Source: Escherichia phage LF82-23
Length of the DNA stretch: 42,378 nucleotides
Sequence record: PV660458
Strand: one strand, 5' to 3'
The notes under the pieces are model-generated. The model was not told where the DNA came from, made no database searches, and worked only from the letters and a program-made list of their open reading frames with translations. Both the position numbers and the translations under genes were made by a program. Of this stretch, positions 1 to 42,378 are shown piece after piece (position 1 is the stretch's first letter; each line of letters begins with the position of its first letter).

Positions 1-306
1 ATGGCATCCGTGAACAAGCAGCTCGATGGGCTGCACCGGATGCTGGTGGAGTATCTGTCCGACCGCTTGGCCGACGCTCGTAGGAAAGATGAACATGGTA
101 ATATCATCGAACCTATGGCGGCGGCTGAGCTGTCCGTACTTCGCCAGTTCCTGAAAGATAACGGTATTCAGGCTGATAAAGACCACGCCGACGATTTACT
201 CGCGCTGCAAGAGCAGCTTAACAACGAGAAAACGGAAGCAGGTCGTAAAGATATCATGTCTGCTGCCATCAACTCAATCGCAGAAGATAGCGGGATGATG
301 CACTAA
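1..306 (+). CDS. probable terminase small subunit (DNA maturase A-like)
   Basis: 101-aa ORF starting at window base 1; stop overlaps the start of the large terminase ORF (TAATG at 304-308); AAGGAG at 42367-42372 at the window end would be its RBS if the sequence is circular. Assignment by position and size only. Confidence 0.5.
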   Translation: MASVNKQLDGLHRMLVEYLSDRLADARRKDEHGNIIEPMAAAELSVLRQFLKDNGIQADKDHADDLLALQEQLNNEKTEAGRKDIMSAAINSIAEDSGMMH

Positions 307-2066
307 TGGATTTACAACGCCGCATGGTGATGGCAGGAATCGTTCGCGCCCACTACGAGAACAACTTCCCGCTGTTCCTGCATGACTACTTCGCATGGCT
401 GGGCTTTGACCTCACTGAAATGCAGCTCGACATTGGCCGCTACATGGCCGACCGGACGCTCAAGAACAAGTGCGTCATGGCTCAGCGCGGTGAGGCAAAG
501 TCCACCATCGGTATTGCTCGCGCCCTGTACGAGTTCGTTCAGATGCCGAACGCCACTGTGTTGTTGGTATCTGGTTCGGACGACTATGCGGGTACGCTGT
601 CGCACGCCATCGTGTCTGCCATTATGCAATGGGAGCGTCTGGAATGGCTGCGCCCTGAGACTCGCGCTGGCGCACGTACGTCCTATACGGACGGCTTCGA
701 CGTGCATCACGCATTCCGTATCCCTGACAAACAGCCCTCTGTAAAAGCGGTCGGTATCTTCGGCCAGTTGCAGGGGAACCACGTATCGCTGTTGATTGCC
801 GATGACGTGGAGACTACCAGTAACGGTAGCTCTCCTGCCAACCGCGCCCGTATCAACACCCTGACCAAAGAGTTTGCGGCTATCGCCAACGATGGTGCAG
901 AGATTCTGTACCTCGGCACACCGCAGACGCAGGACTCCATCTACAACACGCTCCCGCAGCGTGGCTTCGACGTTCGCATCTGGCCCGGTCGTTTCCCAAC
1001 GGTTGAGGAAGAAGAACGCTACGGCGGCTGTCTGGCCCCGTGGATTAAGCAGAAGATGGAGGGCCACCCGGAACTTCGCACAGGCTACGGTATCCTTGGG
1101 AACCGTGGTGCGCAGACCGACCCGCAACGCTACTCCGAAGAAAAGCAGTTGCAGAACGAGCGAGACTACCAGCAGGCAGGCTTCCAGTTGCAGTTCATGC
1201 TGGATACGTCGCTGTCGGATGCGCTCAAACAAACGTTACATCTCAAAGACTTAATCTTCTTCCACGGCTCAACGCAGTCTGCGCCGGAGGTTCTGCATTG
1301 GTCGAACCACCCGCGCCATGCCGCCGAGCTGCCACTGGATTTCCCACTGGCTCGCGCTCAGCTATTCTTGGCTGCTGATTTCTCGGACACTTATGTACCA
1401 TTCGAAAATACCTCGGCGTTTCTTGACCCTGCTGGTGGTGGGTCGGACGAATCAGTTATCATCGCCACCGCTTCTGTCGGCCCGTTTATCCACGTCATTG
1501 GTATGCACGTCTACCACGGCGGCCAGACGGAGGAAAACATCAAGGCGGCGGTAGAGTGGCTCGCTGAAACCGGGGTCAAACGGCTGGTCATTGAGGATAA
1601 CATGGGCCACGGCACCGTGACCAACATGTACCGAGGTGAGATTAAGCGCCAGAGCTTGACCATTGGCTGTGAGGGCGTGTACTCGTCTGGCCAGAAAGAG
1701 GTGCGTATCATCAACCGCCTTGGCCCAATCATGCAGCGCCACCGTGTCGTCGTGCATTGGTGCGTTGTTGAAGAAGACCTGCGGCTGTGTCGCGGGATGA
1801 ACAACGGTGGTCGAGAGTTCAGCCTGTTCTGGCAGCTCCAGAACCTGACACAAGACCGTCAATCCATCCCACACGATGACCGTATCGAAACCCTATCTGC
1901 TGCCGTGTACCTGCACGCTGAGGTGCTACAGCAGGACGAACATGAAGAAGCTGCCAAGCGCGAGACGGCTGCCGCACGAGAGTTCCTTGCCAACCCAATG
2001 GGTTACGATGACTCGAAGTGGCGTAGCCATAAGCCTGTGCGTGGCGTGCGACGGAGACTACGTTAA
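306..2066 (+). CDS. terminase large subunit (DNA maturase B)
   Basis: 586-aa ORF, translationally coupled to the upstream small ORF; size and position typical of T7-group large terminase; N-terminal region resembles T7 gp19-family proteins as I recall them (not searched). Confidence 0.8.
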   Translation: MDLQRRMVMAGIVRAHYENNFPLFLHDYFAWLGFDLTEMQLDIGRYMADRTLKNKCVMAQRGEAKSTIGIARALYEFVQMPNATVLLVSGSDDYAGTLSHAIVSAIMQWERLEWLRPETRAGARTSYTDGFDVHHAFRIPDKQPSVKAVGIFGQLQGNHVSLLIADDVETTSNGSSPANRARINTLTKEFAAIANDGAEILYLGTPQTQDSIYNTLPQRGFDVRIWPGRFPTVEEEERYGGCLAPWIKQKMEGHPELRTGYGILGNRGAQTDPQRYSEEKQLQNERDYQQAGFQLQFMLDTSLSDALKQTLHLKDLIFFHGSTQSAPEVLHWSNHPRHAAELPLDFPLARAQLFLAADFSDTYVPFENTSAFLDPAGGGSDESVIIATASVGPFIHVIGMHVYHGGQTEENIKAAVEWLAETGVKRLVIEDNMGHGTVTNMYRGEIKRQSLTIGCEGVYSSGQKEVRIINRLGPIMQRHRVVVHWCVVEEDLRLCRGMNNGGREFSLFWQLQNLTQDRQSIPHDDRIETLSAAVYLHAEVLQQDEHEEAAKRETAAAREFLANPMGYDDSKWRSHKPVRGVRRRLR

Positions 2067-2734
2067 TGTCCTTGATTACCATTACTGACCAACAGCGGTA
2101 CGATATCGGCTACCGCGCCAACATCGCTGCGAACCTTACGCAGCGTTTCGTGAACAACACTACTCAGATTACGGCAGCTCAGGCTGCTGACATTGATACG
2201 GCCATACAGCAGCTCATGACGGCGCTGGAAGCCGCAGGCTATAGTTCCGTACCAGAAGGCTCTGTTATCGTCGCAGGCGGCGATACAGCGACCGTGGTGA
2301 ACCAAGACGGCACTGTGTCCAAGACTGGTACGGTTGAGGTGGACGGTGACACTTATCAGATTCGATTCCCGGTCACTACGGGTATGAAGTCCAACGGTGA
2401 TTCCATCTCTGTGCAGAACGTGAACGGTGCTGCTGGCATCACCTCTACTGCATTCGTCAACACCAATGGCGTGCTGCTGGCAGCCCGGCTCCCCTCGACG
2501 GTAGCCTGCATCTCCAGCGGTAACGGTATCCAGATTCGCAACTCTGCGGGTACGGCTATCGCTAACGCCACTTTCACGGTTTCCAACGGTGTTATTGCGT
2601 ATGGCACCTTCCCGGCAACCATCGCTGCGGTAGCCAACGCCGCTGCCCTGCAAATCCCGGTAACTGGCACCTACGTGGATACTGTTACCTTCACTGTCGC
2701 TGGTGGCGTAATCACTGGCATCACACTCTCTTAA
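2066..2734 (+). CDS. hypothetical Gly/Thr/Val/Ala-rich beta-type protein, possibly virion- or tail-associated
   Basis: 222-aa ORF coupled to terminase stop (TAATG); low-complexity T/G/V/A/N-rich composition reminiscent of fibre/beta-sheet proteins; no catalytic motif recognised. Confidence 0.45.
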   Translation: MSLITITDQQRYDIGYRANIAANLTQRFVNNTTQITAAQAADIDTAIQQLMTALEAAGYSSVPEGSVIVAGGDTATVVNQDGTVSKTGTVEVDGDTYQIRFPVTTGMKSNGDSISVQNVNGAAGITSTAFVNTNGVLLAARLPSTVACISSGNGIQIRNSAGTAIANATFTVSNGVIAYGTFPATIAAVANAAALQIPVTGTYVDTVTFTVAGGVITGITLS

Positions 2735-2745
2735 GGAGAATCTTT

Positions 2746-2940
2746 ATGGCACTTGTTGATTCTACCGCTGCTGAACGTGCGGAGTTCGTGGCAGCCTGTA
2801 ATATGGCGGCCAAGTATCTGAACGTTTGGACGGAAGACTACTTCTTCGATACCACCAACACTGAGCTGGTTGCGTATTATCAGACCTTTGTGACCCGTGT
2901 ACAAACGGCGCTCACTAACCTGACGAACGCCGCAGCGTAA
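2746..2940 (+). CDS. hypothetical protein (64 aa)
   Basis: ORF with GGAG 7 nt upstream of ATG; no transmembrane segment; function unknown. Confidence 0.45.
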   Translation: MALVDSTAAERAEFVAACNMAAKYLNVWTEDYFFDTTNTELVAYYQTFVTRVQTALTNLTNAAA

Positions 2941-2950
2941 GGGGTATCTC

Positions 2951-3439
2951 ATGAAACTGTCTCGGCTAATGGCCGGGGCAGTCCTATCAGCGTCGCTGAC
3001 TCTGACGGGCTGCTCCGCAACTAGCGCACTGTCTGCTGTAACTTCGGCTGTATCTCCCAACAAGCCGGAACTGACGGCTCAGGTAGGTGCAGAAAACACG
3101 AAGCAAGGTATCGGTGTGACTGCGAAACAGTCCGATGAAACCGAAGTCGGTGATGTATCAGGCAACGCGAAAGTGGATACCGCTAAGCAGGGTTCGAATG
3201 GCACTTCCGTCAAGGACGTCTCAGGAGGCTCTGTAAACGCTTCTAAGCAGGGGTCACAAATGACCCAAGGAAACGTACAGGCTAAAACAGTTGTCATCTC
3301 TCAGAGCGACCCACGCAGTCTCCTGTGGGCATTTGGCATGGGCCTTACGTGCATCCTTGGTCTGGTCATGTGGTTTGTACCATCTCCGTGGAAAAGGAAA
3401 GTGAAAGATGACGGAAGCAAAGAAGGAGCCAACTCCTAA
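2951..3439 (+). CDS. lipoprotein with C-terminal transmembrane helix; unimolecular spanin (u-spanin) candidate
   Basis: N-terminal signal peptide ending in lipobox LTGC (Cys21), low-complexity periplasmic middle, C-terminal hydrophobic helix LLWAFGMGLTCILGLVMWFV; lies directly upstream of holin candidate and endolysin. Architecture matches the T1 gp11-type u-spanin. Confidence 0.55.
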   Translation: MKLSRLMAGAVLSASLTLTGCSATSALSAVTSAVSPNKPELTAQVGAENTKQGIGVTAKQSDETEVGDVSGNAKVDTAKQGSNGTSVKDVSGGSVNASKQGSQMTQGNVQAKTVVISQSDPRSLLWAFGMGLTCILGLVMWFVPSPWKRKVKDDGSKEGANS

Positions 3440-3791
3440 CATCCACTCGCGTATGGGTGCAGTGGAGGCTCGTATGCAATCCGTAGAACTTCGACTCGAC
3501 AAGCACGAGGTACAAATCGCGACCCTCGAAAAGGGTGATGCTGCAATGCTGGCCAAGTTAGCGGAGAACGATACCCGCTGGCAGACGGTTCAACAGCAGC
3601 TCCTTGTGGTTGAGCAAATTCAGGACATTCAGAAGACTATGAGCCACATCGGTAAGTTGTTCACGGCGGCGGCTCACGCTGTCAAATGGTGTCTCTTAAC
3701 TGCATCCCTGTGTAGCGGTATCTACTTAGCAATCAAGGCTGGTGACTTAAGCTCACTGCAAGCCTTCATCACTACACTACTGGGGATGTAA
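3408..3791 (+). CDS. membrane protein, holin candidate
   Basis: 127-aa ORF; predicted coiled-coil N-terminal region then hydrophobic C-terminal segment (AAAHAVKWCLLTASLCSGIYLAI); stop overlaps endolysin start (TAATG). Endolysin lacks a signal/SAR sequence, so a holin is expected here. Confidence 0.4.
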   Translation: MTEAKKEPTPNIHSRMGAVEARMQSVELRLDKHEVQIATLEKGDAAMLAKLAENDTRWQTVQQQLLVVEQIQDIQKTMSHIGKLFTAAAHAVKWCLLTASLCSGIYLAIKAGDLSSLQAFITTLLGM

Positions 3792-4327
3792 TGACTAACT
3801 TTGAAATCTGTATGCGGTTCACCGGGCTGGCAGAAGGTGGTTACACCAAGCTGCCCGGCGATACCGGAGGGGAAACGAATCATGGAATTAGCGACGCTCG
3901 TGATGGCAAACTGGATGGCCGAGCTTGTGGTGTCCCTACTGGGCTTGGCGGCACTATTTGTGTACCTATCAAGCAGCTCACCAAAGCACAAGCCGAAGCA
4001 ATCTATCGACGGGATTACTACACCCCCATCCGAGGTGACGAACTTCACCCTGCGATTGCATGTGCCGTGTTTGACTACGGTGTCAACTCCGGTGTCTCCC
4101 GTGCGGCGAAAGCTCTACAGCGGGTATGCGGCGTTGCACAAGACGGGATTGTTGGCCCTGCTACCGTGGCAGCAGCCAAACGTCTGGAACCTCACTCCGC
4201 AGCAGCAGCCATCTGTGACCTTCGTATTGCGTTCCTAAAGGCTTCTACAGCCCCGACAGTGGTTCGCTATAGGGATGCCTTGGTTGCTCGTGCAAAACGC
4301 TGTAGCGCTTACTGTGCGACGCTGTAG
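3791..4327 (+). CDS. endolysin, glycoside hydrolase family 108-like N-terminal domain plus C-terminal peptidoglycan-binding-like domain
   Basis: N-terminal motif FTGLAEGGYTKLPGDTGGETNHGI matches the GH108 EGGY...D.GG.T..GI signature; C-terminal region resembles PG_binding_3-type domains; last gene before the non-coding terminus. Confidence 0.8.
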   Translation: MTNFEICMRFTGLAEGGYTKLPGDTGGETNHGISDARDGKLDGRACGVPTGLGGTICVPIKQLTKAQAEAIYRRDYYTPIRGDELHPAIACAVFDYGVNSGVSRAAKALQRVCGVAQDGIVGPATVAAAKRLEPHSAAAAICDLRIAFLKASTAPTVVRYRDALVARAKRCSAYCATL

Positions 4328-4544
4328 GGGTATCCGAAAGCTGATGCAATGAACAGGCCGTGGGTGCAATACCCCGGCTTGAAAATTGACTATTTGTACG
4401 TGCCCCTCCCTCGACCCAAATGACCGCGCGTGCCCCCATAGCGTGTGCGCGGTTTAGCCTCGCGACGTGCGCGATAATTGCTCGCGTGCGCTGCGCGGCG
4501 CGTCGAAAGGATTGCCTGCGTGCGGTATAGCTCGTGCGTGTCGC

Positions 4545-4900
4545 GTTTCATCGTCTGCCGTGTGGCGTGCTGTGCGCTGTCCTGCTGGCTGTGCTGTGCG
4601 GTGCTGTCCTATGGGGACGCTCTGCGCTGGCTGGCTGGTGCTGTGGTAGCGGTGCGGTCGGTCGGGTATCTGTCTCTTTTCGTGGCGCGGCGTGGTGCTG
4701 TGTGGTGGCGGTGGTGCTGCGTGGTGCTGTCCTGTCTGCTGGTCTACTGTCTGCGCCTGCCAGCTCTGCGCGTCGTGCTCTGCTACCTGCTGTTACTGTC
4801 CTACTGCCTTCACTGTCTGCCGTCTGTCAGTCCTACGGTCTGCCATCCGTCATCCGTTCGGCGCTCGCTTGTTTCGGCTGCGCCGCGCTCGCTCTGCGTA
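4545..4900. other. A-depleted, GT- then CT-rich low-complexity non-coding block
   Basis: Roughly 5% A on the + strand by eye over about 350 nt (e.g. 4681-4740 contains no A); degenerate short repeats (GCTGTG, GGTGCTG, CTGTC); ORFs here exist only because stop codons need A. Confidence 0.7.
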
Positions 4901-5060
4901 TCTAGCGATACTATATCACTATAGACACTTTCATAATTATCTATTGATATCAGTAACTTATAACCTATCTGATAACGGTATTCTGACCAGTGTTATGATT
5001 ATCTAATCAAACTTTAATCCTAATGATTACAGTAACTTATCACTTTTCTTGAAAATAATA
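4901..5060. repeat. AT-rich block with clustered short GATA/TATC-type palindromes (candidate terminus/ori/packaging region)
   Basis: TTGATATCA, TATCTGATA, TGATTATCTAATCA, CAGTAACTTAT x2 seen directly; lies between the A-depleted block and the early promoters. Confidence 0.5.
4919..4934 (-). promoter_or_regulatory. inverted copy of conserved 16-mer ATGAAAGTGTCTATAG (candidate phage RNAP promoter element)
   Basis: Reverse complement of 4919-4934 is identical to 25618-25633; extended match about 27 nt with one mismatch. Confidence 0.35.
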
Positions 5061-5061
5061 C

Positions 5062-5091
5062 TTGCAAACTGTTTTGGTTTTGTGCTGTAAT
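5062..5091 (+). promoter_or_regulatory. sigma70-type early promoter P1
   Basis: TTGCAA (5062-5067), 18-nt spacer, TGTAAT (5086-5091) preceded by TGn extended -10. Confidence 0.6.
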
Positions 5092-5165
5092 TCATCACGT
5101 CGAAAGGCACTAGCCCAGTAGACAAGATTGAACGGTAACACTGCTCTTTAACAATCTGGAGTGTA

Positions 5166-5194
5166 TTGACAAGGCAAGCTCACTATGCTGTAAT
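5166..5194 (+). promoter_or_regulatory. sigma70-type early promoter P2
   Basis: TTGACA (5166-5171), 17-nt spacer, TGTAAT (5189-5194) with TGc extended -10. Confidence 0.7.
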
Positions 5195-5302
5195 GCTTCC
5201 ACGTCAGCCAGCAAGCTAAACAGTCATTGATAAAGACGTTAAAACACACGCAGGCAAACTGGTACGGGTTATTCATCTCAGAACGGGCGCTGAATAAAAC
5301 GG

Positions 5303-5331
5303 TTGACAGGATGAAACGAGTATGCTGTAAT
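5303..5331 (+). promoter_or_regulatory. sigma70-type early promoter P3
   Basis: TTGACA (5303-5308), 17-nt spacer, TGTAAT (5326-5331) with TGc extended -10. Confidence 0.7.
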
Positions 5332-5382
5332 ACGCTCCAGATTGACAGGGCAGCAAGCCAGTCAGTCAGAAGTAAAAAGTAG

Positions 5383-5411
5383 TTGACACGCTGAATACGA
5401 TGTGATGTAAT
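5383..5411 (+). promoter_or_regulatory. sigma70-type early promoter P4
   Basis: TTGACA (5383-5388), 17-nt spacer, TGTAAT (5406-5411) with TGa extended -10. Confidence 0.7.
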
Positions 5412-5843
5412 CAGCACCGAGTTGAAAGGTTGCAAAACAACCTGCTCTGAGTGAACGTAAACAGGCCACGTAGTGTCTCGGCCTCATGGGTATCCGGCGC
5501 AGCTAGGAACTGGTGAGGGCACCGCCGAAAGGCAATAGGGGTAGCGCCCGGTGCGATGGGAACGGAGAAGCGCGATAGACGCAGCGCAGTATCAGCACAA
5601 TCCCGAACGTCTTATAAGGCGCGGAGTGAAGCGGGTAGGTAGGCAAGCTGGTAACGGTGAGCCGGACTGCTGGAGGACTCCTGAGAGTGGATGCAGACAA
5701 TATCCACGGCGCGAAATGGGCGGGGCGATTTTTCAGGGTAGTGAATCCGACAAGCCAATCAATGCCAACGAGTGCAGACTGTACGGCGCGTCACAATGGG
5801 TTCACTATCCACCTGAAAATAGCCAACAACTGGAGAAATTAAT

Positions 5844-6233
5844 ATGTACCGTATCTATGCAAGCGCATATCGTCAGGGCAACGCTGAGTCAGTCAATCTG
5901 GCGCTTCATTGCAAGGCACTGCGAACGGTGCAGGACATGTTCGGAGTGGTTCCGGTCACACTGACAGGCAAGTTCGACAATGCGTATGAGTTAAGCATGG
6001 TCTTCCCTGTCGATGGAATCTACGAAATCCGACAGGCTGTTAAGCTGTTTTGTAAAGCCTTCGAACAGGACTGCATCATGGTAGTGACCAAAGACGACGA
6101 TGCAATCTTCATGGACTCACCGTATCCGGGTAAGCCTGCTGGCAAGCTGGTCAGCAAGACTAACGAGGAAATGGAAGCCGGGCAGCATACCGCTTGGACT
6201 TACGATGGTGAGCAATTTTGGGTAGTGGAGTAA
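5844..6233 (+). CDS. hypothetical early protein (129 aa)
   Basis: First ORF after promoter array and leader; GGAG 9 nt upstream of ATG. Confidence 0.6.
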   Translation: MYRIYASAYRQGNAESVNLALHCKALRTVQDMFGVVPVTLTGKFDNAYELSMVFPVDGIYEIRQAVKLFCKAFEQDCIMVVTKDDDAIFMDSPYPGKPAGKLVSKTNEEMEAGQHTAWTYDGEQFWVVE

Positions 6234-6244
6234 GGAGCATGACT

Positions 6245-6316
6245 ATGTTCACTGCACTGTGTGTTATTGCGGCGGCGTGTTGGGTTATTGACCAGCGCCT
6301 GCCTAAGCGAGCCTGA
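6245..6316 (+). CDS. tiny hydrophobic peptide (23 aa), candidate small membrane protein
   Basis: AAGGAG (6232-6237) 7 nt upstream of ATG 6245; peptide MFTALCVIAAACWVIDQRLPKRA; below the 60-aa floor of the ORF track. Confidence 0.3.
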   Translation: MFTALCVIAAACWVIDQRLPKRA

Positions 6317-6317
6317 T

Positions 6318-6401
6318 ATGTGGGACTTACTGGTAGCGTTATTCTGGTTCGTCTTTGCAGGCTTGTGGATTTACTGGCTGACTCGTCCCAAATTATGGTG
6401 A
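6318..6401 (+). CDS. tiny hydrophobic peptide (27 aa), candidate single-pass membrane protein
   Basis: ATG 1 nt after the stop of the preceding tiny ORF (possible coupling); peptide MWDLLVALFWFVFAGLWIYWLTRPKLW has an 18-residue hydrophobic core. Confidence 0.3.
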   Translation: MWDLLVALFWFVFAGLWIYWLTRPKLW

Positions 6402-6465
6402 CTGCCTAATGCGTCTTGCGAGGCGCATTGTGAAGTAACCAACCAACAACCCGACGAGGTGTATC

Positions 6466-6993
6466 ATGACTACTGTTAAATATACTGCATTCAAAGACGC
6501 TGCCGCTCTGGACAAGGCTATTGAGTCTACCGTCAAGAAGGCGCACTCACTCCGTAACGAGATTCAGAACGTTGCGGTCGGTATCATCCTGCACGCTTAC
6601 CATCACGGCGACTACACTCGTGCTGAATCCTTCGTGAATCAGCTCGGTCAGGGTGTCCGTGGCAAGGCGCTGGTAGACTGGTTCGTCAAGTTCGGCGGCC
6701 TGATTATCGGTGAGAACGGCGGTAAACAGGGCTTCATCGGCTGGCAGGGCGCTGAGTACATCAAGGCGAACATCGACACGGCCAAAGCCACCATGTGGTG
6801 GAGCATGAAGCCTGAGCAGGCGTTCGAAGGCTTCGACCTGCAAGATGCGCTCGAAAAGCTGATTGCCAAAGCTGAGAAGGCGCTGAACAAGGCCAATGAG
6901 CTGCGTCACGAAGGCAAGGACGAAGACGCGAACAAGGTAGTCGTGCCGCAGAACGTCCTCGACCTGCTGCGCAAGGCTAAACAGGCTGCCTAA
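6466..6993 (+). CDS. hypothetical early protein (175 aa)
   Basis: ORF with GAGGTG 6 nt upstream of ATG; preceded by hairpin AATGCG-N10-CGCATT (6408-6429). Confidence 0.6.
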   Translation: MTTVKYTAFKDAAALDKAIESTVKKAHSLRNEIQNVAVGIILHAYHHGDYTRAESFVNQLGQGVRGKALVDWFVKFGGLIIGENGGKQGFIGWQGAEYIKANIDTAKATMWWSMKPEQAFEGFDLQDALEKLIAKAEKALNKANELRHEGKDEDANKVVVPQNVLDLLRKAKQAA

Positions 6994-7007
6994 GCGGGAT
7001 TGACTCA

Positions 7008-7045
7008 AGCCAGTGTCACGGCGCTGGCTTTATGGCAATTCTGCC
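7008..7045 (+). promoter_or_regulatory. conserved early intergenic unit 1: hairpin (AGCCAG/CTGGCT) + GGCA-N4-TGCC element
   Basis: Stem 7008-7013/7024-7029; GGCAATTCTGCC 7034-7045; 34 nt from GGCA to ATG of next gene. Confidence 0.5.
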
Positions 7046-7067
7046 CCAACCATTTAGGAGCTTCACC

Positions 7068-7349
7068 ATGTCTATCAAAACTGTAACTGCTTTCATCACC
7101 AAACGCGACGGCGAACTGTACGGCTTCGCTGTGTCTCTGAACGAAGGCCAGTACCTGCACCATGTCCGTGAAGACGGCGAGCCGACTGAGGCTGCTGGTA
7201 TTCTGGAAACGCTGGCTGGTATCCCGCTGCCGCATGAGTTCATCATCATGCTGGCTGAGCAGGACGAAGACGAGCTGAAAGCGCGTCACGGTAGCGGCCT
7301 GACGCTGGAAGAAATCGGCACCTTCGAAGCCGAGGTTGACGACGAGTAA
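7068..7349 (+). CDS. small acidic early protein (93 aa)
   Basis: AGGAG 9 nt upstream; ORF-track start 7032 lies inside the conserved upstream element, so the downstream ATG was chosen; acidic C-terminus (EAEVDDE). Confidence 0.6.
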   Translation: MSIKTVTAFITKRDGELYGFAVSLNEGQYLHHVREDGEPTEAAGILETLAGIPLPHEFIIMLAEQDEDELKARHGSGLTLEEIGTFEAEVDDE

Positions 7350-7360
7350 GCGTTGTCCTG

Positions 7361-7398
7361 CTGCGCCTTCAACGAGGGCGCAGCGTGGCAATAATGCC
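7361..7398 (+). promoter_or_regulatory. conserved early intergenic unit 2: hairpin (CTGCGCC/GGCGCAG) + GGCA-N4-TGCC element
   Basis: Stem 7361-7367/7377-7383; GGCAATAATGCC 7387-7398; 34 nt to ATG. Confidence 0.5.
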
Positions 7399-7420
7399 TT
7401 ACTCAATCGAGGGTTTTACT

Positions 7421-7762
7421 ATGACTATCAAACTGGTTCTGCTGTCCAACATCGCTGCCTCTGCTTTCGGTGAAGGCGTTCCGGCTGACGCTATCACCAG
7501 CGAGTGGGTTGGCTTCACTCAGGACGGTGAGAACTACCTGATTGCAGGCCGCAACCGCGACGGCGACAGCGCTGAGCAAATCGTTGCGCACTTCGACAAC
7601 GACAGCAACTTCGCAGAGTTCCGCGAGTCCGGCTTCCCGCTGGAGCTGTTTGCTCTGATGGGCGGTCACTCCTTCCTCAGCACTGAAACGCTGGGTGAGG
7701 GCGTGGTTATCAACGTGCTCAAAGAGTACGACGCGGAAGACGATATCGACTTCAACGCGTGA
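7421..7762 (+). CDS. small acidic early protein (113 aa)
   Basis: Conserved RBS context GAGGGTTTTACTATG; acidic C-terminus. Confidence 0.6.
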   Translation: MTIKLVLLSNIAASAFGEGVPADAITSEWVGFTQDGENYLIAGRNRDGDSAEQIVAHFDNDSNFAEFRESGFPLELFALMGGHSFLSTETLGEGVVINVLKEYDAEDDIDFNA

Positions 7763-7769
7763 TACCTTA

Positions 7770-7806: not shown

Positions 7807-7827
7807 CTAACCTTTTGAGGATTCAAT

Positions 7828-8103: not shown

Positions 8104-8135
8104 TCAACCAACCATCAAGCAACAGGAGTACGAGC

Positions 8136-34183: not shown

Positions 34184-36880
34184 ATGGCTACTATGCGTGA
34201 CCAGCGTGGCGCTAACCTTAATGCTGCGCAGCAGGGATTACCAAATGTGCAGCAGGCGCAGACTCCGTTTAGTCTCGCAGGCCGCGATACTCGCATCGAC
34301 ACGTTTCCTACCGAGTCCATTCAGCGCGTACTGAACATGGCCAGCGCACTTGCTGGCCGTGTCACTGAGCGTGCGAACGAGGAAGAATACCTCAAGGGTG
34401 CCAATGCCGCCGCGAGCGGTAAGGCTGTTGAGGATTTGGATTCGAACTGGCTGACTGCCCAGTTCCAGAAGGCTGGTTACAACGACCAGTACAAGCGTAT
34501 GCAGATGGCGAACGTCGCCTCTGAAATCTCGGCTAACATGCCGCAGTACGCGAAAATGAGTCCTGACGAGTTCTTGAAGGTGGTGGACGAGAAGACCACT
34601 GGCCTGTTCGAGAACACTGATGGTATGACGCTGAACGGTCGTAAGTCTCTGCTGGAGAACCAGCTCACGTTCAGCAACACCCTTATCCGTACGCAGGCTG
34701 CCCAGCATGGTAAGTATCTGGTTGAGCAGCGTGCAGCTATGTACAATGCGCAGGGTAACACTCTTGTTACTCTGGCGGCTCAGGCCAAGGCGACTGGTGA
34801 CGGCGGCGCGTACGCTAACGCTACGGCTGCGACCATGGCGTGGGCCAAGTCCATTCTGGCAGACGATAAGCTGCCGCTGGAAACTCGACGGACTCAGGTA
34901 ACGTCCATGATGGGGCTGATGCTCCAGCAGGATTTGCGTACCCCTGTCGAGACTGCTGTTAACTCCGGGCTGTTCAACGAGCTGCCTGCCGAGGACTTGG
35001 CCAAGCTGCAAGGTCAGATTCGTGAATCCAAATCTCGTACCGAGGTTCAGGACAACATGGGTCTGCTGGCGCAGAAGGGTCAGCTCGATGCGCGTCAGGC
35101 AGTGTTCGGTGACGTTACGCCGGAGCAGTACACGCAGACGCTCCAGCAGATGGTGGACAACAAGCTGATTAGTGCTGGTGGTTTCAGCTCTGCTATCGAG
35201 TCCTTCTACAAGGATTATGCGAAGCAGGCCAAGGCCAGCCAGCTCGGTCAGGCGTACGCTACCGGGAACCAGACGTACATGCTCCAGCAGGGTGCGAGTG
35301 AACAGGATGGTGCTGACGCATTCATCAAGGCTCGCATGAAGCAGCCGGGCGCGACGGCAAGCTCCGTGGCATTCGACCTGCTGCAAGTTGGCGCACAGAC
35401 TGGCTTCCCTTCTGCGTATAAGTCTGCTGCCAAACTGATTGAACCATCCCTGTCGAACTTCGGCACCGTGGATGAAATGAACCCTGATGCAGCCGCTACC
35501 GTGACCGGGCTGATTGACCGCGTGGCCGTGGCCGAGAATCAGGGTGATAAGACCGCGTGGACTAAACTCCTGTCCGGTCTGTCCGAGGAAAACCAAGAGA
35601 AGATGGTGTACATGCGCGAGCAGATTAAGGCCGGGCGCACCATCGACCAAGCTGGTCAGGGTTACATCAAGCAGCAGCAGGACTACGCTGGCTTAACCCC
35701 GGCACAGAAATCTCAAATCCTCACGCAGCGTCAATCTGACGTTAACACTGTGGTGAACTCCCTTGAGGCTCAGGGCTTCTTTTCTCGCACTTGGCAGGGG
35801 CTGGCTGGTCTGTTCTCAGACACTCAGCAGAACCTGTTCCAAGCTCGCGTCGCATCTGGTGACATTACTGCCGCGCAGGAAATGTCGGAGGTGTCTGCCG
35901 CGTACCGCGAGGAACTGCAAGCTGTCGTCCTCAAGAACCCGAACGTGACCAAAGATGGTATGGAAGCCCTCGCATCTGCGAAGCTGGCTAACCGTGTCCT
36001 CCGCGTCGGGGAAACCACATTCAGTCCCGGCTCTGTGCTTATCGCACCGAGAGGCCAAACTGTTCAGTCTATGCTCGGCTTGCCTGCTGACGTAGCCCCC
36101 GACCGTATCGGTCGCGCTATCGCCGCACTTGACCAGACCAAGGCACCAGAAGGCTTCGAGTCGTCCTACTCGTTTATGCCAGATGGCTCTCTGAACGTTC
36201 AGTTCTTCAACAAGCAAGGTGACGTTTCCCCGAACTCGGTACGCATTCTGCCGCAGGTCGTGCAGGAACGCATCCGTGAAGACGACCGTGCAGCGGCCAC
36301 TGCCAATAACGAAGTCTATGGCGACGGGAAACTCTTTGTTGATAAGTCCAGTAACATCGGGATTCGCGTGAATGGCGTGAATACTGCTGGGGTAGACGAG
36401 CAGCGTATGCTTGTTGCCCGTGGCAAACTGATTGACTTCGAAGGTATCCGCAATACCACTTACCGCGACAGCACTGGTGTGCAGACGAACGGTATTGGTA
36501 TTTCTGACCGCAGCCCGTACTTCTCGGAAGGTCAGGCATCCGGTATGAAAGGCGGTACTGAATGGTCTCCGCGAACTATCCATGATACGTTCGTGCAGCA
36601 CACCAACATGGTGGCCCGGCAGATGCCCGGCACTGCTGCTGCACTGGGGTGGAGTCGTGACAACGATGCCCAGTTCCAGTTCATGATGCAGATGGGTTAT
36701 CAGGCAGGTTCAAGCTGGTATCGCACCGATGGCGCGTACAGCAAGCTGGCTGATGCAATCCGTGTTGGCGACCAAGAGAAAGCTGTTCAGGCTCTGGCTG
36801 CGACTCCGGCTTACAAGCTGTCGCAGGACGAGCGTAAGCAGTATTACGTCCAAACTCTACTCGCAGGTATGCAGGAATGA
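34184..36880 (+). CDS. internal virion protein B (gp15-like)
   Basis: 898-aa ORF at the gp15 position. Confidence 0.6.
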   Translation: MATMRDQRGANLNAAQQGLPNVQQAQTPFSLAGRDTRIDTFPTESIQRVLNMASALAGRVTERANEEEYLKGANAAASGKAVEDLDSNWLTAQFQKAGYNDQYKRMQMANVASEISANMPQYAKMSPDEFLKVVDEKTTGLFENTDGMTLNGRKSLLENQLTFSNTLIRTQAAQHGKYLVEQRAAMYNAQGNTLVTLAAQAKATGDGGAYANATAATMAWAKSILADDKLPLETRRTQVTSMMGLMLQQDLRTPVETAVNSGLFNELPAEDLAKLQGQIRESKSRTEVQDNMGLLAQKGQLDARQAVFGDVTPEQYTQTLQQMVDNKLISAGGFSSAIESFYKDYAKQAKASQLGQAYATGNQTYMLQQGASEQDGADAFIKARMKQPGATASSVAFDLLQVGAQTGFPSAYKSAAKLIEPSLSNFGTVDEMNPDAAATVTGLIDRVAVAENQGDKTAWTKLLSGLSEENQEKMVYMREQIKAGRTIDQAGQGYIKQQQDYAGLTPAQKSQILTQRQSDVNTVVNSLEAQGFFSRTWQGLAGLFSDTQQNLFQARVASGDITAAQEMSEVSAAYREELQAVVLKNPNVTKDGMEALASAKLANRVLRVGETTFSPGSVLIAPRGQTVQSMLGLPADVAPDRIGRAIAALDQTKAPEGFESSYSFMPDGSLNVQFFNKQGDVSPNSVRILPQVVQERIREDDRAAATANNEVYGDGKLFVDKSSNIGIRVNGVNTAGVDEQRMLVARGKLIDFEGIRNTTYRDSTGVQTNGIGISDRSPYFSEGQASGMKGGTEWSPRTIHDTFVQHTNMVARQMPGTAAALGWSRDNDAQFQFMMQMGYQAGSSWYRTDGAYSKLADAIRVGDQEKAVQALAATPAYKLSQDERKQYYVQTLLAGMQE

Positions 36881-39800
36881 TTATCACACAAGAATCGCTC
36901 GACAAGTTCATGGCTCCCAAGCAGGGGGCCAATGCCCCTACGCTGGTGATTCCAGCTCCCGTAAAGACTGCTGACCTCAGCACTCCGCTGCAAGATGCCA
37001 CTCGTCAGGGTGCCGTCGAGCAGTTCGACAAGATGCAGGAACTGGAAGCGACTCCGATGGCCACGGCGTTGAGCGCTTCTGTGAAGAACTGGGATACCAC
37101 CCAGCTCTTTGATGCGGCAATCAACAAGCCTGTGTTTCAGGCTGACCCAAACTTCCACCCTAACGAGGCGTTGCAGAACGTCCAGTTCCCGGTGGGGGAG
37201 GATGACCGTAAGTTCCTGTTCAAATCCAAATCCATGGACGAGTTCAACTGGCGCACCCAGCAGCTCCAAGAGATGCGCGAGCGTACCCAGTTGGCTCACA
37301 CTGCCCCGGTGATGAACGCGGTTCTGCAATTTGCTGACCCGCTGTACCTCGCCACTGACCTGCTCTCGATGGGAGCAGGCACTGCCCTGAAATTAGGTCG
37401 CCTCGGAACCGCCGCTGTCGGTGCAGCTTCAACTGCTGCCACTATGACAGCGGTGGGTAATGAAGCACGCCCAGTGTCTCAGAACGAAATCATCTTCGCG
37501 GCTGCCCTGCACGGGGCGGCCACCACTGCATTCTATCGCCCGGCCCCGGTACAGCGCTCGCTGGCCGACCTGTCGCCGGAGGAATTTGCAGCGGAGATGC
37601 AGCGTCGTAATGGCATCGACCCGAACAACCCGCCGCAGTTCGACCCGAACAACGCCATGTCACCTATGGCAATGTCCTTGGGCTTCGGCGGTCGTGGTGC
37701 AACCGTGGTTGATGAAGTGCCTGAGTCCATCCGTGCCGCCGCACAACGTGGCCTCGACCTTGCTCGCCGTGGTGAGCAGACCAACCCTAAGCGTCCGTTC
37801 CTTGAATGGTCTCTGTTCAAGTCATTCAGCCAGCATTCCGACGAAGCCAGTGCTCTGGCCGGGCGACTGCTGGATGACCCGCTGAACCCGAACATGACCT
37901 CTGCTGCCGCAATCCAGCGCGAGACTCAGGCTCGCTTCGGCGTGCTGCTGAACCAGTACGAGGACACCCTGCGTAATGCGCTGAGCACTGATGGCTGGAC
38001 TAACATCCGGCGCTTCCGTGACCCGGTTGGTTATCGCCGGGCGCAGCAGGAGTTCGAAGCTGCTGTCCGTCTCGAACTGGACAAGCGCATGATTGACAAA
38101 GAGTTCAGAGGTGCCAACGAGAAGGTGGCCGCCGCCGCTGACCGACTGGGGGAATACTCCCGCGCCGTTGGCCGCGAGCTGGAAACGAAGGGCATGGTTG
38201 AGCCGGGCTTCGTAGACAAGAACCCGTACTACTACCCGCGCCGGATGAACGTGACCAAGATTGAGCAGGCTGAGCAGTTGCTCGGTAAGAAGCCATTCAT
38301 GAAGCAGATGACGACTGCGGTGCAGCGCGGTATCGGTACTGACCGTCCGACTGCCAACGTCATCGCCCATGCCATGGTTGAGCGTGCTCGCCGCAAGGGT
38401 TATGGTGTTGACAACTCCGGTATGATTATCAACAAGGAGGGCCGCGATGAACTGCTCGAAATCATTGAGAACTCGAAAGGTCTCGACGAGGCTGCCAAGG
38501 CCCGTGCTTCCGCACTCCTTCGTGAGTCTGGCTCGGACGCTGGCCGACCGTCGATGCTCAAGAGCCGTATCAACATCGACATGATGCACACGCTTGGCCC
38601 GAACTTGCAGGTGCGTGACCTGTTCGACGACAGCATCACCAGCATGATGGACAGCTACAACCGCCGCATTACTGGGCGACTGGCTCTGCATGAGGCTGGA
38701 CTGGGTACTGACGCTGAACGTGTCGCCGCTCGCGAGGCTCTGGCCAAATCCATCAAGGATGGTACGGCTCGTCGCCAAGCGCTGGCGCAGTACGATAACA
38801 TCATGGCCTACTATCAGGGTGCCCCGGTCGGTGAGGAAATGCCGCAGTTCATGCGCCAGCTCTCTGCGCTGACTCAGGCTACTGGTCTGGCTGCATCTGG
38901 CCTGTGGCAGTTGGTGGAATACGGCACGATGATGCAACGTTTCGGGGCAGTCAATACGTTTCGCGCCATGATGCGTACAATTCCCGAAGCACGCGCACTA
39001 TTTAAGCAAATGAGGGTGTCTACTAAGGAAGGTCGTCAATTGGCTCTGGATGCCGAGGAAGCGCTGACTGCGGCTGTGGCGAGTGATATTCGTATGCGCC
39101 CAATCATGCAGCACTACGACGACATGTTCTCTGCCGACAAGTCTCCGTGGGTTATGCGTCTTGAACACGCCCGTGATGCCACGATGTTCATCAACATGCA
39201 GAAATACATTCACTTCCACCAGACTCGAACCAACGCTGCTCTCGTGATGCAGACGCTGCGTAAGGCAGCCGAAGGTGATGCCAAGGCTATTGCAGCCATG
39301 AAAACCTACGGTGCCAATGACGCGCTGCTGTCTGATATTCGCAAGCAGGTTGGTACTCATGGCACCAAGCCAGATGCTTGGGATGAAGGGGTATTCAATC
39401 GCTCTCGCATTGTCATGATGAATGCCATGGATGACGCTATTGTTCGCGCTCGCGTAGGTGAGCTGCCTGCATTTGCTGAGTTCAGTACGCTGGGTAAGTT
39501 CCTGTTTACGTTCCGTCGATTCGTCGCGGCGACGCACAACAAGACTCTGGTTGGTACGTGGAACCGTGAGGGTGCCCGTGGCATGGCTACGCTCATGGCG
39601 TACCAGTACCCGCTGGCAATGATGGCCACTGCTGCTAACAACGTGATTTCCGGTAAGGCATTCTCCGACCCGGACACTATGGCTCCGAACAAACTGGCTG
39701 GTCAGGCACTGAACTACCTTGGTGCTATTGGCTTTGCCTCTGAGTTCACTGGAGTTCTGACCGGGCAGCAGCGCAGCTTCGGTGCGCCGGGCCTGCTGTT

Positions 39801-39984
39801 CCTTGACCGCGCTTACGGTGTGGCGGGTGCAGCTACCAGTGCTGCTGGTGGCGTGCTGACTGGCGATACTGAGCAGGCAGTGTCTGGCGCTCGCAAAGCG
39901 GCAGGCAACATCATCCAAGCTATCCCACTCATTTCAATCGTGCCGGGAGTCCGAGCACTCAACGAAGCAGTTAAGGGTGAATAA
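36877..39984 (+). CDS. internal virion protein C (gp16-like)
   Basis: 1035-aa ORF at the gp16 position; ATGA overlap with the preceding gene. Confidence 0.6.
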   Translation: MIITQESLDKFMAPKQGANAPTLVIPAPVKTADLSTPLQDATRQGAVEQFDKMQELEATPMATALSASVKNWDTTQLFDAAINKPVFQADPNFHPNEALQNVQFPVGEDDRKFLFKSKSMDEFNWRTQQLQEMRERTQLAHTAPVMNAVLQFADPLYLATDLLSMGAGTALKLGRLGTAAVGAASTAATMTAVGNEARPVSQNEIIFAAALHGAATTAFYRPAPVQRSLADLSPEEFAAEMQRRNGIDPNNPPQFDPNNAMSPMAMSLGFGGRGATVVDEVPESIRAAAQRGLDLARRGEQTNPKRPFLEWSLFKSFSQHSDEASALAGRLLDDPLNPNMTSAAAIQRETQARFGVLLNQYEDTLRNALSTDGWTNIRRFRDPVGYRRAQQEFEAAVRLELDKRMIDKEFRGANEKVAAAADRLGEYSRAVGRELETKGMVEPGFVDKNPYYYPRRMNVTKIEQAEQLLGKKPFMKQMTTAVQRGIGTDRPTANVIAHAMVERARRKGYGVDNSGMIINKEGRDELLEIIENSKGLDEAAKARASALLRESGSDAGRPSMLKSRINIDMMHTLGPNLQVRDLFDDSITSMMDSYNRRITGRLALHEAGLGTDAERVAAREALAKSIKDGTARRQALAQYDNIMAYYQGAPVGEEMPQFMRQLSALTQATGLAASGLWQLVEYGTMMQRFGAVNTFRAMMRTIPEARALFKQMRVSTKEGRQLALDAEEALTAAVASDIRMRPIMQHYDDMFSADKSPWVMRLEHARDATMFINMQKYIHFHQTRTNAALVMQTLRKAAEGDAKAIAAMKTYGANDALLSDIRKQVGTHGTKPDAWDEGVFNRSRIVMMNAMDDAIVRARVGELPAFAEFSTLGKFLFTFRRFVAATHNKTLVGTWNREGARGMATLMAYQYPLAMMATAANNVISGKAFSDPDTMAPNKLAGQALNYLGAIGFASEFTGVLTGQQRSFGAPGLLFLDRAYGVAGAATSAAGGVLTGDTEQAVSGARKAAGNIIQAIPLISIVPGVRALNEAVKGE

Positions 39985-42368
39985 TGGCGAACAGCTATAA
40001 CGCTTACGTGGCAAACGGAACGCAGACCGCGTTCCTTGTCACCTTTGAGCAACGCGTGTTCACTGAGATTCAGGTGTACCTCAACTCCGAACTCCAGACG
40101 AGCGGGTACACCTACAACTCTGTGACCAAACAGATTATCTTCGACACCGCCCCGCTCGCCGGGGTGATTGTCCGACTCCAACGTTACACCTCTGAGGTTC
40201 TACTGAACAAGTTCGGCCAAGACGCTGCCTTCACTGGGCAGAACCTTGACGAGAACTTCGAGCAGATTCTGTTCAAGGCCGAGGAAACTCAGGAAGCATG
40301 GCTCGCGCCGCTTGACCGCGCCGTCCGTGTTCCAAACTCTGAGGTCTCTATCAACGCATTACCGAACGTCGCTGGCCGCCGCAACAAGGCATTGGGCTTT
40401 GACAGCAATGGCCAGCCGTTCATGATTCCTCTGGTCGATATCCCGGACTCCGCTCTGGCGATTGCTCTGGCAATGGCTGACGGCGGTAAGTGGATTGGTA
40501 CTCTTGGTGGTGGCACGTTCCTCGACCGTCAGGATACCGTATGCCTGTCCGAGTTCACCAACAATACCGGGTACGCTTCTACCGCCGCTGCGGTGCAGGC
40601 TTGCTTCGATTATGCCAAGGCCAACAACAAAGTTGTTGATGCCCGTGGCTGGGAAGGTACTGTCAGCTCCACTGTCCTGATGGACGGTATTGAGGTTGTC
40701 GGTGGTACGTGGAATGGTACAGCAGACATTCGACTGCTGAACGCCACGTTCCGCAACTTCTCTGCGTCAAAGGTTCGTGTCTGCTACTGGGGCGGCAATG
40801 TACGCATTGCTGACTACGAGTTCACCGACCACCCATCGGCATCGAAAGTTGCCAGTATTCTGTTCCAAGGCAACATCGCCGGGGGCAGCTACGTCATTGA
40901 GAACGGCGTACACCGCAATGGCTACTTCGGTATTCTCCAGCAAGGTACTGGCGAAACCATTGACAACGGTGTGATTCGCAACATCGCGCTCATGGATATG
41001 GCTGGTGACGGTATTGAGATGAACGTAATCAACAAGCACTATGATGGTGGCCTGTCGATTGAGAACATCTACCTCGAAAATATCAACGGTATCAACCCAA
41101 CCTCCAACCCATCCTTCGTATCCAACTGGGGTATCGGGATTGGTCTGGCTGGTCAAGGGCCGTTTGGCTGGGATGCTGCTGAAACCCAATACGCGAAGAA
41201 CATCACAGTCCGTGGTGTTCATGCTCCGCGCGGCGTGCGACAAGTCATCCACTTCGAGGTGGCCAAGAACTGTTCAGTGTATGACGTACACGCCAACCCT
41301 GACCTGACTGTTTCCAACGGTACGGGCCTGACCGCCGCTGGTGTTATCACCTACGGCTGCAAGGACATGGTTATTGACGGGGTGTACGGTGAGCCTATCG
41401 TCGGCACCACAGGCACTGACCCGGCTGCTGTTCGTCTGGTGATGTGTGAGTGGGGTGCTAACCAAGCGGGTGCAGGTGGTGTGCCGGGTGCATCTAACCC
41501 GTCATTCAACATGACGCTGCGCAACATCTACACCAAGACCGGGCGTGTCTACGCTGGTGTTGGCTCCGATGATGTGAACACCAACGTATACCACCTTGAG
41601 AACATCCACTGCTACCGTCTGAGCCTCTTTGGTGTGGCAACCCTCCTGAACATGACCAACGTGACGGGTGTTGACTTCGACTGCGTAGGCGATGACTCCA
41701 GCGGCGGTACGTCCTCTAATGGTGTGTACCCGCGACGCAAGACCTGCCTGAACATGGTGAACGTGAACTTCTATGGGCCGGGCATGACAGAGGGTGCGCT
41801 GTACAGTAAGGCTCGCTACACGGATATCAGTACTCTGAACTCCAACGTGCGTGCTATTCCGTACTCCAACATCCAAGGTAACGTTGGCGTTATCCTGTCT
41901 CCGGTCAACCGTATGTACACGCTACCAAACGACCTTGCGACACTGACTGGCGGGGAGTTCCCAACTGGTAGGGAGTTCTGCGAGGGTACGGTACTGTTCA
42001 AGACCGATGGCTCCGGTGGCAACTTCATAGTTACCAAGTTCGGTGCCTACATTCCCAATGACGGCAACAACTTCAAGGTGCGTGCTGCTGCCGCTGGCCA
42101 GACTTATCTGGAGCAGAACCTGACTCCGGCTGGTACTCAGGCTTCTACCTCGTGGCTGTACCATAAGCCAATCTCTGCTGGTACTCGACTGAACATTCCG
42201 GGTGCCGGGCCGGGCGGCGATACGCTCACTGTGACGGTGGTGCGTGCTCCGTATCAGGTGGACAACAACATCGGAAACCCGGTGCGCATCGACATTACCC
42301 CGGCCATTGTGACGGCAATCCCTGCGGGAACGCAGCTCGCCGCTACCTACCCGGTGGCCTACATCTAA
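39984..42368 (+). CDS. tail fibre/tailspike with T7 gp17-like N-terminal anchor and beta-helix (polysaccharide depolymerase-like) domain
   Basis: N-terminus AFLVTFEQRVFTEIQVYLN...FTGQNLDENFEQI follows the T7 gp17 adaptor pattern; central region shows periodic N/G/I/V-rich repeats typical of right-handed beta-helix (pectate-lyase-like) tailspikes. Confidence 0.7.
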   Translation: MANSYNAYVANGTQTAFLVTFEQRVFTEIQVYLNSELQTSGYTYNSVTKQIIFDTAPLAGVIVRLQRYTSEVLLNKFGQDAAFTGQNLDENFEQILFKAEETQEAWLAPLDRAVRVPNSEVSINALPNVAGRRNKALGFDSNGQPFMIPLVDIPDSALAIALAMADGGKWIGTLGGGTFLDRQDTVCLSEFTNNTGYASTAAAVQACFDYAKANNKVVDARGWEGTVSSTVLMDGIEVVGGTWNGTADIRLLNATFRNFSASKVRVCYWGGNVRIADYEFTDHPSASKVASILFQGNIAGGSYVIENGVHRNGYFGILQQGTGETIDNGVIRNIALMDMAGDGIEMNVINKHYDGGLSIENIYLENINGINPTSNPSFVSNWGIGIGLAGQGPFGWDAAETQYAKNITVRGVHAPRGVRQVIHFEVAKNCSVYDVHANPDLTVSNGTGLTAAGVITYGCKDMVIDGVYGEPIVGTTGTDPAAVRLVMCEWGANQAGAGGVPGASNPSFNMTLRNIYTKTGRVYAGVGSDDVNTNVYHLENIHCYRLSLFGVATLLNMTNVTGVDFDCVGDDSSGGTSSNGVYPRRKTCLNMVNVNFYGPGMTEGALYSKARYTDISTLNSNVRAIPYSNIQGNVGVILSPVNRMYTLPNDLATLTGGEFPTGREFCEGTVLFKTDGSGGNFIVTKFGAYIPNDGNNFKVRAAAAGQTYLEQNLTPAGTQASTSWLYHKPISAGTRLNIPGAGPGGDTLTVTVVRAPYQVDNNIGNPVRIDITPAIVTAIPAGTQLAATYPVAYI

Positions 42369-42378
42369 GGAGAAACCC

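Follow-up and report, generated by a model that had tools for sequence, protein, structure and literature searches.

The sequence record PV660458 of Escherichia phage LF82-23, a stretch of 42,378 nucleotides (nt) that we refer to at its full length as the window, is the whole genome of a Bonnellvirus (family Autographiviridae), a lytic podophage. The assembly behind it closes on itself, and the record was rotated to open at the ATG of the gene for TerS, the small terminase subunit. The virion DNA is most likely unpermuted and would carry a direct repeat of ~245 base pairs (bp) at its ends. We assign this reading as a whole a probability of roughly 0.85. As such the finding is ordinary, a known genus gaining a new member through a complete, rotated genome.

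Closure, completeness and classification

A look-up of the window's proteins led to the Logan contig SRR33571408_33 (42,408 bp), which is identical to the window at all 42,378 bases. Searching the literature for the accession of this run gave no result. Four exact pieces of this contig together span the whole circularised window (42,378/42,378 bases), and one of them runs unbroken from 39799 through 42378 and 1 to 9990, making the two window ends neighbours in the source. Both contig ends share the same 30 bases. Given this overlap, and since 42,408 - 30 equals 42,378, the contig is a self-closing assembly path; the Logan assembler works with k=31, and 30 is k-1. The window is this path with the overlap trimmed, rotated to open at the terS ATG. 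The overlap and the join lie as follows:

39799-39828, no strand: overlap of the contig ends, 30 nt, at an arbitrary place inside a gene
42366-42378, plus strand: tailspike stop codon TAA (42366-42368), AGGAG ribosome-binding site (RBS) and 6-nt spacer, serving the ATG at base 1

The window ends in ...ATC TAA GGAGAAACCC (also written ...ATCTAAGGAGAAACCC) and starts with ATGGCATCC. Its TAA closes the gene for the 794-amino-acid (aa) tailspike (39984-42368), and AGGAG at 42368-42372 stands 6 nt 5′ of the ATG at base 1, the well-spaced Shine-Dalgarno sequence that the original prediction had seen in the last bases (the string it quoted has 13 nt, not 12). Equal RBS-to-start geometry is found at 2734 to 2746, 8124 to 8136, 12699 to 12709 and 23147 to 23157. 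On the plus strand, 12 of the 33 AGGAG sites stand 4-10 nt 5′ of a start codon that opens an open reading frame (ORF) of at least 40 codons, among them those of the genuine genes at 2746, 8136, 12709 and 23157, so the arrangement at base 1 is normal for this phage. For each of five relatives (SS-2025, megetsur, J8-65, altidsur and aldrigsur), one alignment follows the window over the join without loss of colinearity, and there the genomes read TAAGGAGAAACC(A/C)ATG or TAAGGAGTAATCATG, within ±1 nt. The join of 42378 to 1 is real DNA: the window ends do belong joined, as had been proposed, with the contig and the five relatives all running through.

The genome had also been called complete, which agrees with the 30-nt self-overlap of the contig, with the genome sizes of the relatives (40.8-42.5 kb) and with an alignment to other bonnellviruses that takes in every window base except those of a single HNH endonuclease gene. 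Compared by megablast with 50,697 phage records (phage collection of August 2025), the window matches Bonnellvirus genomes only, along its full length, and no phikmvvirus. The records of these relatives give their taxonomy as Autographiviridae; Bonnellvirus, with no subfamily listed. A VIRIDIC-style calculation gave these whole-genome similarities:

SS-2025, BHUENT7 and Ec1-ASingh: 91.3%
megetsur: 90.9%
altidsur: 88.3%
J8-65: 76.4%
LIMEzero (genus Waewaevirus): 42.8%

The ten other genus members besides J8-65 are 81-91% similar to the window. The ICTV, the international committee for virus taxonomy, sets the genus criterion at a whole-genome nucleotide similarity of at least about 70%, and the line between phage species is drawn at 95%. 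Judged by nucleotide similarity, the window phage is a Bonnellvirus, and with a best match of 91.3% among the genomes compared from the August 2025 collection it is a probable new species. It has the marks of the family, namely its own single-subunit RNA polymerase (RNAP) and a genome near 40 kb with one-stranded coding, here 54 genes, all on the plus strand, in 42,378 bp. The aa identity of the RNAP is 99.6% to that of megetsur, ~31% to those of phikmvviruses and ~26% to that of T7. The absence of a megablast match and the ~31% RNAP identity place the phage outside Phikmvvirus, so that of its earlier description as phiKMV-like the architecture holds and the taxonomy does not.

Among the outcomes that the original prediction itself named as counting against it is a window that is a piece of a larger replicon. 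Such a replicon could be a prophage or a plasmid-like element, or the contig could be a chimera with host DNA. When window 1-25000 was searched against 5,426 complete E. coli genomes, no integrated phage copy was found, and matches in any chromosome or plasmid made up no more than 1% of these 25 kb, the longest reaching at most ~250 bp. The contig closes at 42,378 bp, the aligning bonnellvirus genomes measure 41-42.5 kb, no integrase is among the called genes, and a scan of the window for tRNA genes returned none. Nothing was found in favour of a larger replicon; the contig number 33 shows merely that the run gave other contigs. Contig closure, the alignment to bonnellviruses, the lack of an integrase and the E. 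coli search together exclude this explanation for all practical purposes.

Virion ends, promoters and leader RNA

The placement of the virion ends starts from J8-65, whose record has an exact, annotated 259-bp terminal repeat (1-259 and 40723-40981). In an alignment of the spacer between the endolysin and S-adenosylmethionine (SAM) lyase genes, the first J8-65 base falls on window 4411, between CCTCCC and TCGACCC, and the last repeat base on ~4655. Across 15 aligned genomes, the stretch 4328-4960 contains no more than four invariant runs that are 8 nt or longer, and these include CCCGGCTTGAAAATTG (4373-4388) and CCTCCCTCGAC (4405-4415). LIMEzero, from another genus, has CCTCCCTCGAC at record positions 36-46, and the LUZ19 genome (Phikmvvirus), annotated with a 472-bp repeat, begins CCCTCCCGAC, which resembles the same invariant 11-mer. 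From the J8-65 alignment, the invariance of CCTCCCTCGAC and the starts of LIMEzero and LUZ19, we infer a left virion end at 4404-4411, inside CCTCCCTCGAC, and the repeat listed here:

4373-4415, no strand: conserved end site CCCGGCTTGAAAATTG-N16-CCTCCCTCGAC, both blocks invariant in 15 genomes
4411-4655, no strand: predicted direct terminal repeat of ~245 bp, by homology to J8-65, with boundaries to ~±10 nt

The virion DNA would thus be linear and ~42.6 kb long, with two copies of the repeat; the window contains one copy and no second. These positions lie within 4330-5060, where the physical termini had been predicted, and the single copy agrees with the expectation that a direct repeat was collapsed in assembly. 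The match of the large terminase subunit TerL to the T7 terminase fits packaging by short direct repeats, not by headful. Islands in E. coli that keep few phage sequences (see below) retain exactly the site at 4373-4415, as expected if it is a packaging signal, and the end region supplies a conserved candidate terminase cutting site. Just right of the predicted repeat, the conserved TATCTGTCTCTTTTCG (4666-4681, plus strand; TATCTATCTTTTTTCG in J8-65 and CTACCTCTTTTCG in LIMEzero) is similar to ATCTGTT, the class II pause signal of T7, which belongs to the concatemer junction; we treat this as a resemblance only.

Headful packaging would instead yield virion DNA that is circularly permuted and terminally redundant, with neither fixed ends nor a short repeat. 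A self-closing assembly is compatible with it, as is the fact that nearly all deposited relatives lack a repeat and open at different places; such arbitrary record starts are, however, the usual outcome of short-read assemblers when repeats collapse. The terminase is of the T7 type and not of a headful type, the records of J8-65 and LUZ19 have exact terminal repeats, and the invariant motif coincides with the J8-65 end. We therefore consider headful packaging very improbable. The term "circularly permuted" in the original prediction applies to the rotated record and most likely not to the virion DNA.

Several points weigh against the fixed ends and repeat that we favour. The ends are placed by homology, and among the close relatives a repeat is annotated in J8-65 alone, the paper on that phage being silent on how the ends were determined. 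All other deposited bonnellvirus records (for example BHUENT7, altidsur, Kc261, glasur and usur) have arbitrary opening points and no terminal repeat. The repeat region diverges fast (~70% identity to J8-65), which leaves its right boundary approximate, and an assembly graph with k=31 could have merged short repeats within 4440-4900, which is rich in G+T. Moreover, a path that closes on itself would arise equally from a collapsed repeat, from concatemers or from a molecule that is truly circular. Terminal repeats go unmentioned in the Kc261 and Olsen papers. When IMG/VR was scanned with the end site, the hits were J8-65, Lidtsur and two further ~42.5-kb contigs, none of which locates the ends.

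A milder alternative is that the gene content is complete and ~4440-4900 is slightly mis-assembled, so that the length and the repeat borders would be wrong by some tens of bases. The stretch ~4440-4900 does contain degenerate direct repeats (family D8), the source assembly was built with k=31, and the relatives differ there by many small indels; yet 14 other genomes align over its full extent, and no large gap is specific to the window. We judge such an error unlikely and prefer a faithful assembly with one collapsed repeat. For annotators, this means reopening the record at ~4411 and adding the second ~245-bp repeat copy. Among the deposited records, we observed that BHUENT7 has a 121-bp assembly overlap at its ends and that Kc261 exceeds the length stated in its paper by 229 bp. 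The 'repeat_region' annotated in altidsur (10232-10272) was considered as a terminal repeat and rejected, being a 41-bp internal repeat.

Right of the repeat end (~4655), the window contains, in order, an A-poor spacer, an antisense promoter, an AT-rich block and four host promoters. The features of this region and the further promoter copies are:

4501-4900, plus strand: A-poor, G+T-rich spacer, 4-7% A
4913-4934, minus strand: predicted phage-RNAP promoter copy, antisense, counterpart of LUZ19 P001
5062-5091, 5166-5194, 5303-5331 and 5383-5411, plus strand: four predicted host-type promoters, TTGACA (first: TTGCAA)-N17/18-TGTAAT
5412-5843, plus strand: structured non-coding leader RNA, 432 nt, from the last host promoter to the SAM-lyase ATG
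11327-11344, plus strand: predicted phage promoter copy, core ATGAAAGTGTCTATAGTG, before the replication genes
25618-25639, plus strand: predicted main phage promoter, 29 nt past the RNAP stop codon
25887-25905 and 39010-39028, plus strand: predicted weaker promoter variants

The first 700 nt of LUZ19 show the same base skew (2-9% A). The sites at 25618-25639 (plus) and 4913-4934 (minus) form a perfect 22-nt inverted pair, where chance would give 0, and the site at 11327 repeats their core, ATGAAAGTGTCTATAGTG. Within each lineage, the variable core of the motif changes jointly at all copies, the minus-strand copy included:

Window group: GTGTCTATAG
glasur: GTGACTATAG
Kc261 and usur: GCTACTATAG
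J8-65: GTAACTGTAG
LIMEzero: AAGGCAAGCACTAAGG

Promoters that serve a phage-encoded polymerase behave in this way, covarying at every copy, and we predict that the motif copies are promoters of this kind. The plus-strand sites also correspond in position to the annotated phage promoters of LIMEzero, whose phage promoter at 7294-7313 occupies the position equivalent to 11327. Mapping of primary transcripts in LUZ19 revealed two phage promoters just after the RNAP gene, one in the structural genes and the antisense left-end promoter P001, a pattern kept in 15 other phikmvviruses (PMC10914365). We located the LUZ19 motif at +21115, +21312 and +35590, with a minus-strand copy at 732-751, which is 260 nt right of the repeat and 160 nt left of the first host promoter. 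The window has this phiKMV-type pattern of few promoters as judged by motif (+11327, +25618, +25887, +39010 and -4934). An antisense promoter at the left end, known from experiments in LUZ19, would thereby extend to two enterobacterial genera, Bonnellvirus and Waewaevirus.

Two other readings of the 22-nt motif were rejected. A promoter on the opposite strand (reverse complement TCACTATAG, T7-like) is contradicted because conservation, both at 11327 and in J8-65, is confined to the part upstream of the rightward TATA, and because all genes need rightward promoters. A motif that is solely a shared coding N-terminus (MKVS...) does not explain the minus-strand copy at 4934, which hits a stop after 7 codons. 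As a separate observation, the motif overlaps the start codon of one gene in three lineages (window 25887-25905, J8-65 19870-19888, LIMEzero 20741-20759), and the first six codons of that gene (MKVSTM, MKVSVV, MKASTK) shift with the promoter sequence of the lineage; the DNA signal seems to dictate the N-terminus of this protein.

The four host promoters were missed by a simple sigma-70 scan, whose rule is broken by the -10 sequence TGTAAT, and were found by pattern search. They are conserved in the relatives, and LIMEzero and LUZ19 have annotated host promoters at the same place. The leader that follows contains no annotated gene in any relative and is 73-99.8% conserved. Its consensus fold, derived from 11 bonnellviruses, has 119 pairs, with 98.2% of cells paired (33-39% in slid controls) and compensatory change at 14 pairs (0-4 in controls), a level reached by 0/500 shuffles. 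Most compensatory changes are common to one five-sequence group and so reflect few events, yet they are spread over several distinct helices. The leader pairs through its 5′ end with bases beside the RBS, and its 3′ third is an invariant long hairpin. Rfam gave no match to the leader, neither for the whole window at the gathering threshold nor for 4300-5900 at E<=5, where one chance-level microRNA hit alone appeared. The leader is accordingly a large covarying RNA without an Rfam family; a role as an RNase III site or in control of the first gene is a guess.

By analogy with T7, J8-65 and LUZ19, infection may proceed as follows. Linear DNA of ~42.6 kb, with a direct repeat of ~245 bp and its left end at 4404-4411 in CCTCCCTCGAC, would enter the cell left end first, and the four host promoters (5062-5411) would drive the early genes via the structured leader. 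The phage RNAP would then use the promoters at 11327 and 25618, the weaker ones at 25887 and 39010, and the antisense promoter at 4934-4913. Finally, a T7-type terminase would cut concatemers at the conserved end site and regenerate the repeat.

Candidate satellite islands in E. coli

In 52 of the 5,426 complete E. coli genomes, a match of 205-260 bp (83-94% identity) covers window 4715/4757-4962 alone. This match to the antisense-promoter block is unannotated in the ten records listed. Three copies were examined, two in chromosomes and one in a metagenome contig, and each lies in an island of ~15 kb at tRNA-Leu:

NZ_AP042523.1, 6864-22564: island, with phage matches at 12001-12208 and 10292-10335
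NZ_CP132979.1, ~9311-24525: island
Metagenome contig, 717-15404: island

The two chromosomal islands (~15.5 kb) adjoin ahr, and a 26-nt repeat of the tRNA end flanks the first. OkiPb01685 and ARS-C101 are examples of strains that bear an island. Among the island products are a tyrosine integrase, a serine recombinase, a 614-aa DEAD-box helicase, ~8 small proteins of unknown function, a major head protein, an HNH endonuclease, an endonuclease VII and variable cargo of abortive-infection (Abi) or toxin genes. Their head protein is 55% identical to the capsid protein of the window, and when it is compared with all phage records, bonnellviruses match best (54-56%), followed by LIMEzero (50%) and then by matches of at most 44%.

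Both annotated chromosomal islands copy the end site as CCCGGCTTGAAAAATTGCACGCTTATGGTTGGCCCTCCCTCAAC, and in one of them the phage similarity continues into the start of the repeat. The islands also carry copies of the antisense promoter and of a rightward promoter-like sequence before the helicase operon, and the promoter core varies between island variants in step with known lineages of the phages, being GTGTCTATAG, GTGACTATAG (as in glasur) or GCATCTATAG. A size of one third of the phage, phage promoters, a phage end site and an own copy of the capsid protein all fit a satellite.

We see an about even chance that the islands are satellites of strictly lytic Autographiviridae, resembling phage-inducible chromosomal islands (PICIs), that have copied the end site 4373-4415 and the antisense block 4757-4962. 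Under this proposal, the helper RNAP would activate the island, the helper terminase would package it into capsids holding one third of a genome, and the lineage of the window phage would be one such helper. The main alternative is that the islands serve in defence and are switched on by the polymerase of the phage. Searches of the literature for satellites of Autographiviridae gave no description that matches these islands, which does not prove that none exists, and the literature searched held no account of a satellite that exploits lytic relatives of T7 in enterobacteria; the island family at tRNA-Leu is apparently undescribed. If they are satellites, the islands could limit or shape the therapeutic use of these phages, because they carry Abi-type defence genes.

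Gene content and comparison with known phages

The source contig has 54 called genes, all on the plus strand, the main ones backed by Pfam or PHROG families. They are laid out as terminase, lysis, a non-coding block of 1.5 kb (4328-5843), early, replication, RNAP and structural genes. After rotation this is the order given in the original prediction (early genes, replication ending in RNAP, structural genes, terminase, lysis), and it follows the phiKMV-type plan, the RNAP gene closing the replication block at 25589 and the structural block starting at 25700. The genes are:

1-306, plus: TerS, small terminase subunit (PF11123, E 2.5e-17; phrog_891; annotated as TerS in J8-65 and altidsur)
306-2066, plus: TerL, T7 type (PF22530, T7 terminase RNaseH-like domain)
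2066-2734, plus: conserved gene of unknown function
2746-2940, plus: lysis cassette, 64-aa ORF
2951-3439, plus: lysis cassette, Rz-like spanin
3408-3791, plus: lysis cassette, gene of unknown function
3791-4327, plus: lysis cassette, GH108 endolysin
5844-6233, plus: SAM lyase (anti-restriction SAMase), the first early gene (PF23780, E 1.4e-27)
6466-11290, plus: ~17 small early genes of unknown function (contig gene calls)
11364-23154, plus: replication and nucleotide-metabolism block (Pfam matches, relatives' annotation)
11998-12708, plus: primase
12709-13107, plus: free-standing HNH homing endonuclease (PF13392, phrog_59), exactly between primase and helicase
13097-14362, plus: helicase, DnaB-like
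15602-18067, plus: DNA polymerase, family A
19153-20127, plus: exonuclease
20102-20434, plus: endonuclease VII
21745-22272, plus: PNKP
23157-25589, plus: single-subunit RNAP (PF00940, E 5.5e-83; T7 RNAP structures, E 1e-57)
25700-42368, plus: structural block (PF12236, PF17212, PF25675, PF24072, PF27800; relatives' annotation)
26569-28134, plus: portal
28145-29371, plus: scaffold
29392-30384, plus: major capsid protein
30441-30989, plus: tail tube A
30989-33439, plus: nozzle
33441-39984, plus: internal virion proteins, including a T7 gp14-like protein
39984-42368, plus: tailspike, colanic-acid-degrading, WcaM-type

TerL matches solved structures of the T7 terminase (8dgc, E 7e-66; 4bij, E 2e-58), and the genes in 2066-4327 are assigned from phrog_1804, phrog_315, PF05838 and the contig gene calls. 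The HNH gene is absent from all compared bonnellvirus genomes; an identical HNH protein occurs at the same site in ENA contig k141_3322 and in Logan contig SRR21418948_214681. Between early genes, we observed a repeated element, a GC-rich hairpin followed by GGCAATnATGCC, directly before the RBS of the next gene. It is found at 7000-7075, 7360-7430, 7770-7825, 8380-8450 and 10287-10334 (four clear copies and one weak), and these elements may be processing or termination sites.

J8-65 (Bonnellvirus J865, KM247287), the type phage, is like the window in gene order and gene set, in its colanic-acid-degrading tailspike and in the plan of its left end, and its leader is 98.6% identical. It differs in its length of 40,981 bp, which includes both repeat copies, in having no HNH gene between primase and helicase, in its promoter core (GTAACTGTAG vs GTGTCTATAG) and in its set of early genes, window 7075-11148 being largely without a match there. 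The Enterobacter phages SS-2025 and BHUENT7 and the Escherichia phages Ec1-ASingh and megetsur, ~91% similar, share the promoter motif of the window. These nearest genomes have no match to window 2243/2303-2635, 6302-6403 and 9068-9586 (SS-2025: 9069-9295) and no HNH gene, and the leader of SS-2025 holds a module different from that of the window.

LUZ19, like the window, has its RNAP gene next to the structural genes, two promoters after that gene and one inside the gene for a large internal virion protein. Its left end also corresponds, with a repeat, an A-poor spacer, an antisense promoter ~260 nt right of the repeat and host promoters. It belongs to another genus, shows no DNA similarity by megablast and has a different promoter sequence. 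In phiKMV-type phages the lysis genes also come after the terminase genes, but their content differs from that of the window. T7 shares with the window a single-subunit RNAP, a T7-type terminase, a first gene of the SAM-lyase type, host promoters at the left end and, as proposed for the window, a short direct terminal repeat and cutting of concatemers, whereas its RNAP gene is early, near the left end, and its phage promoters are far more numerous.

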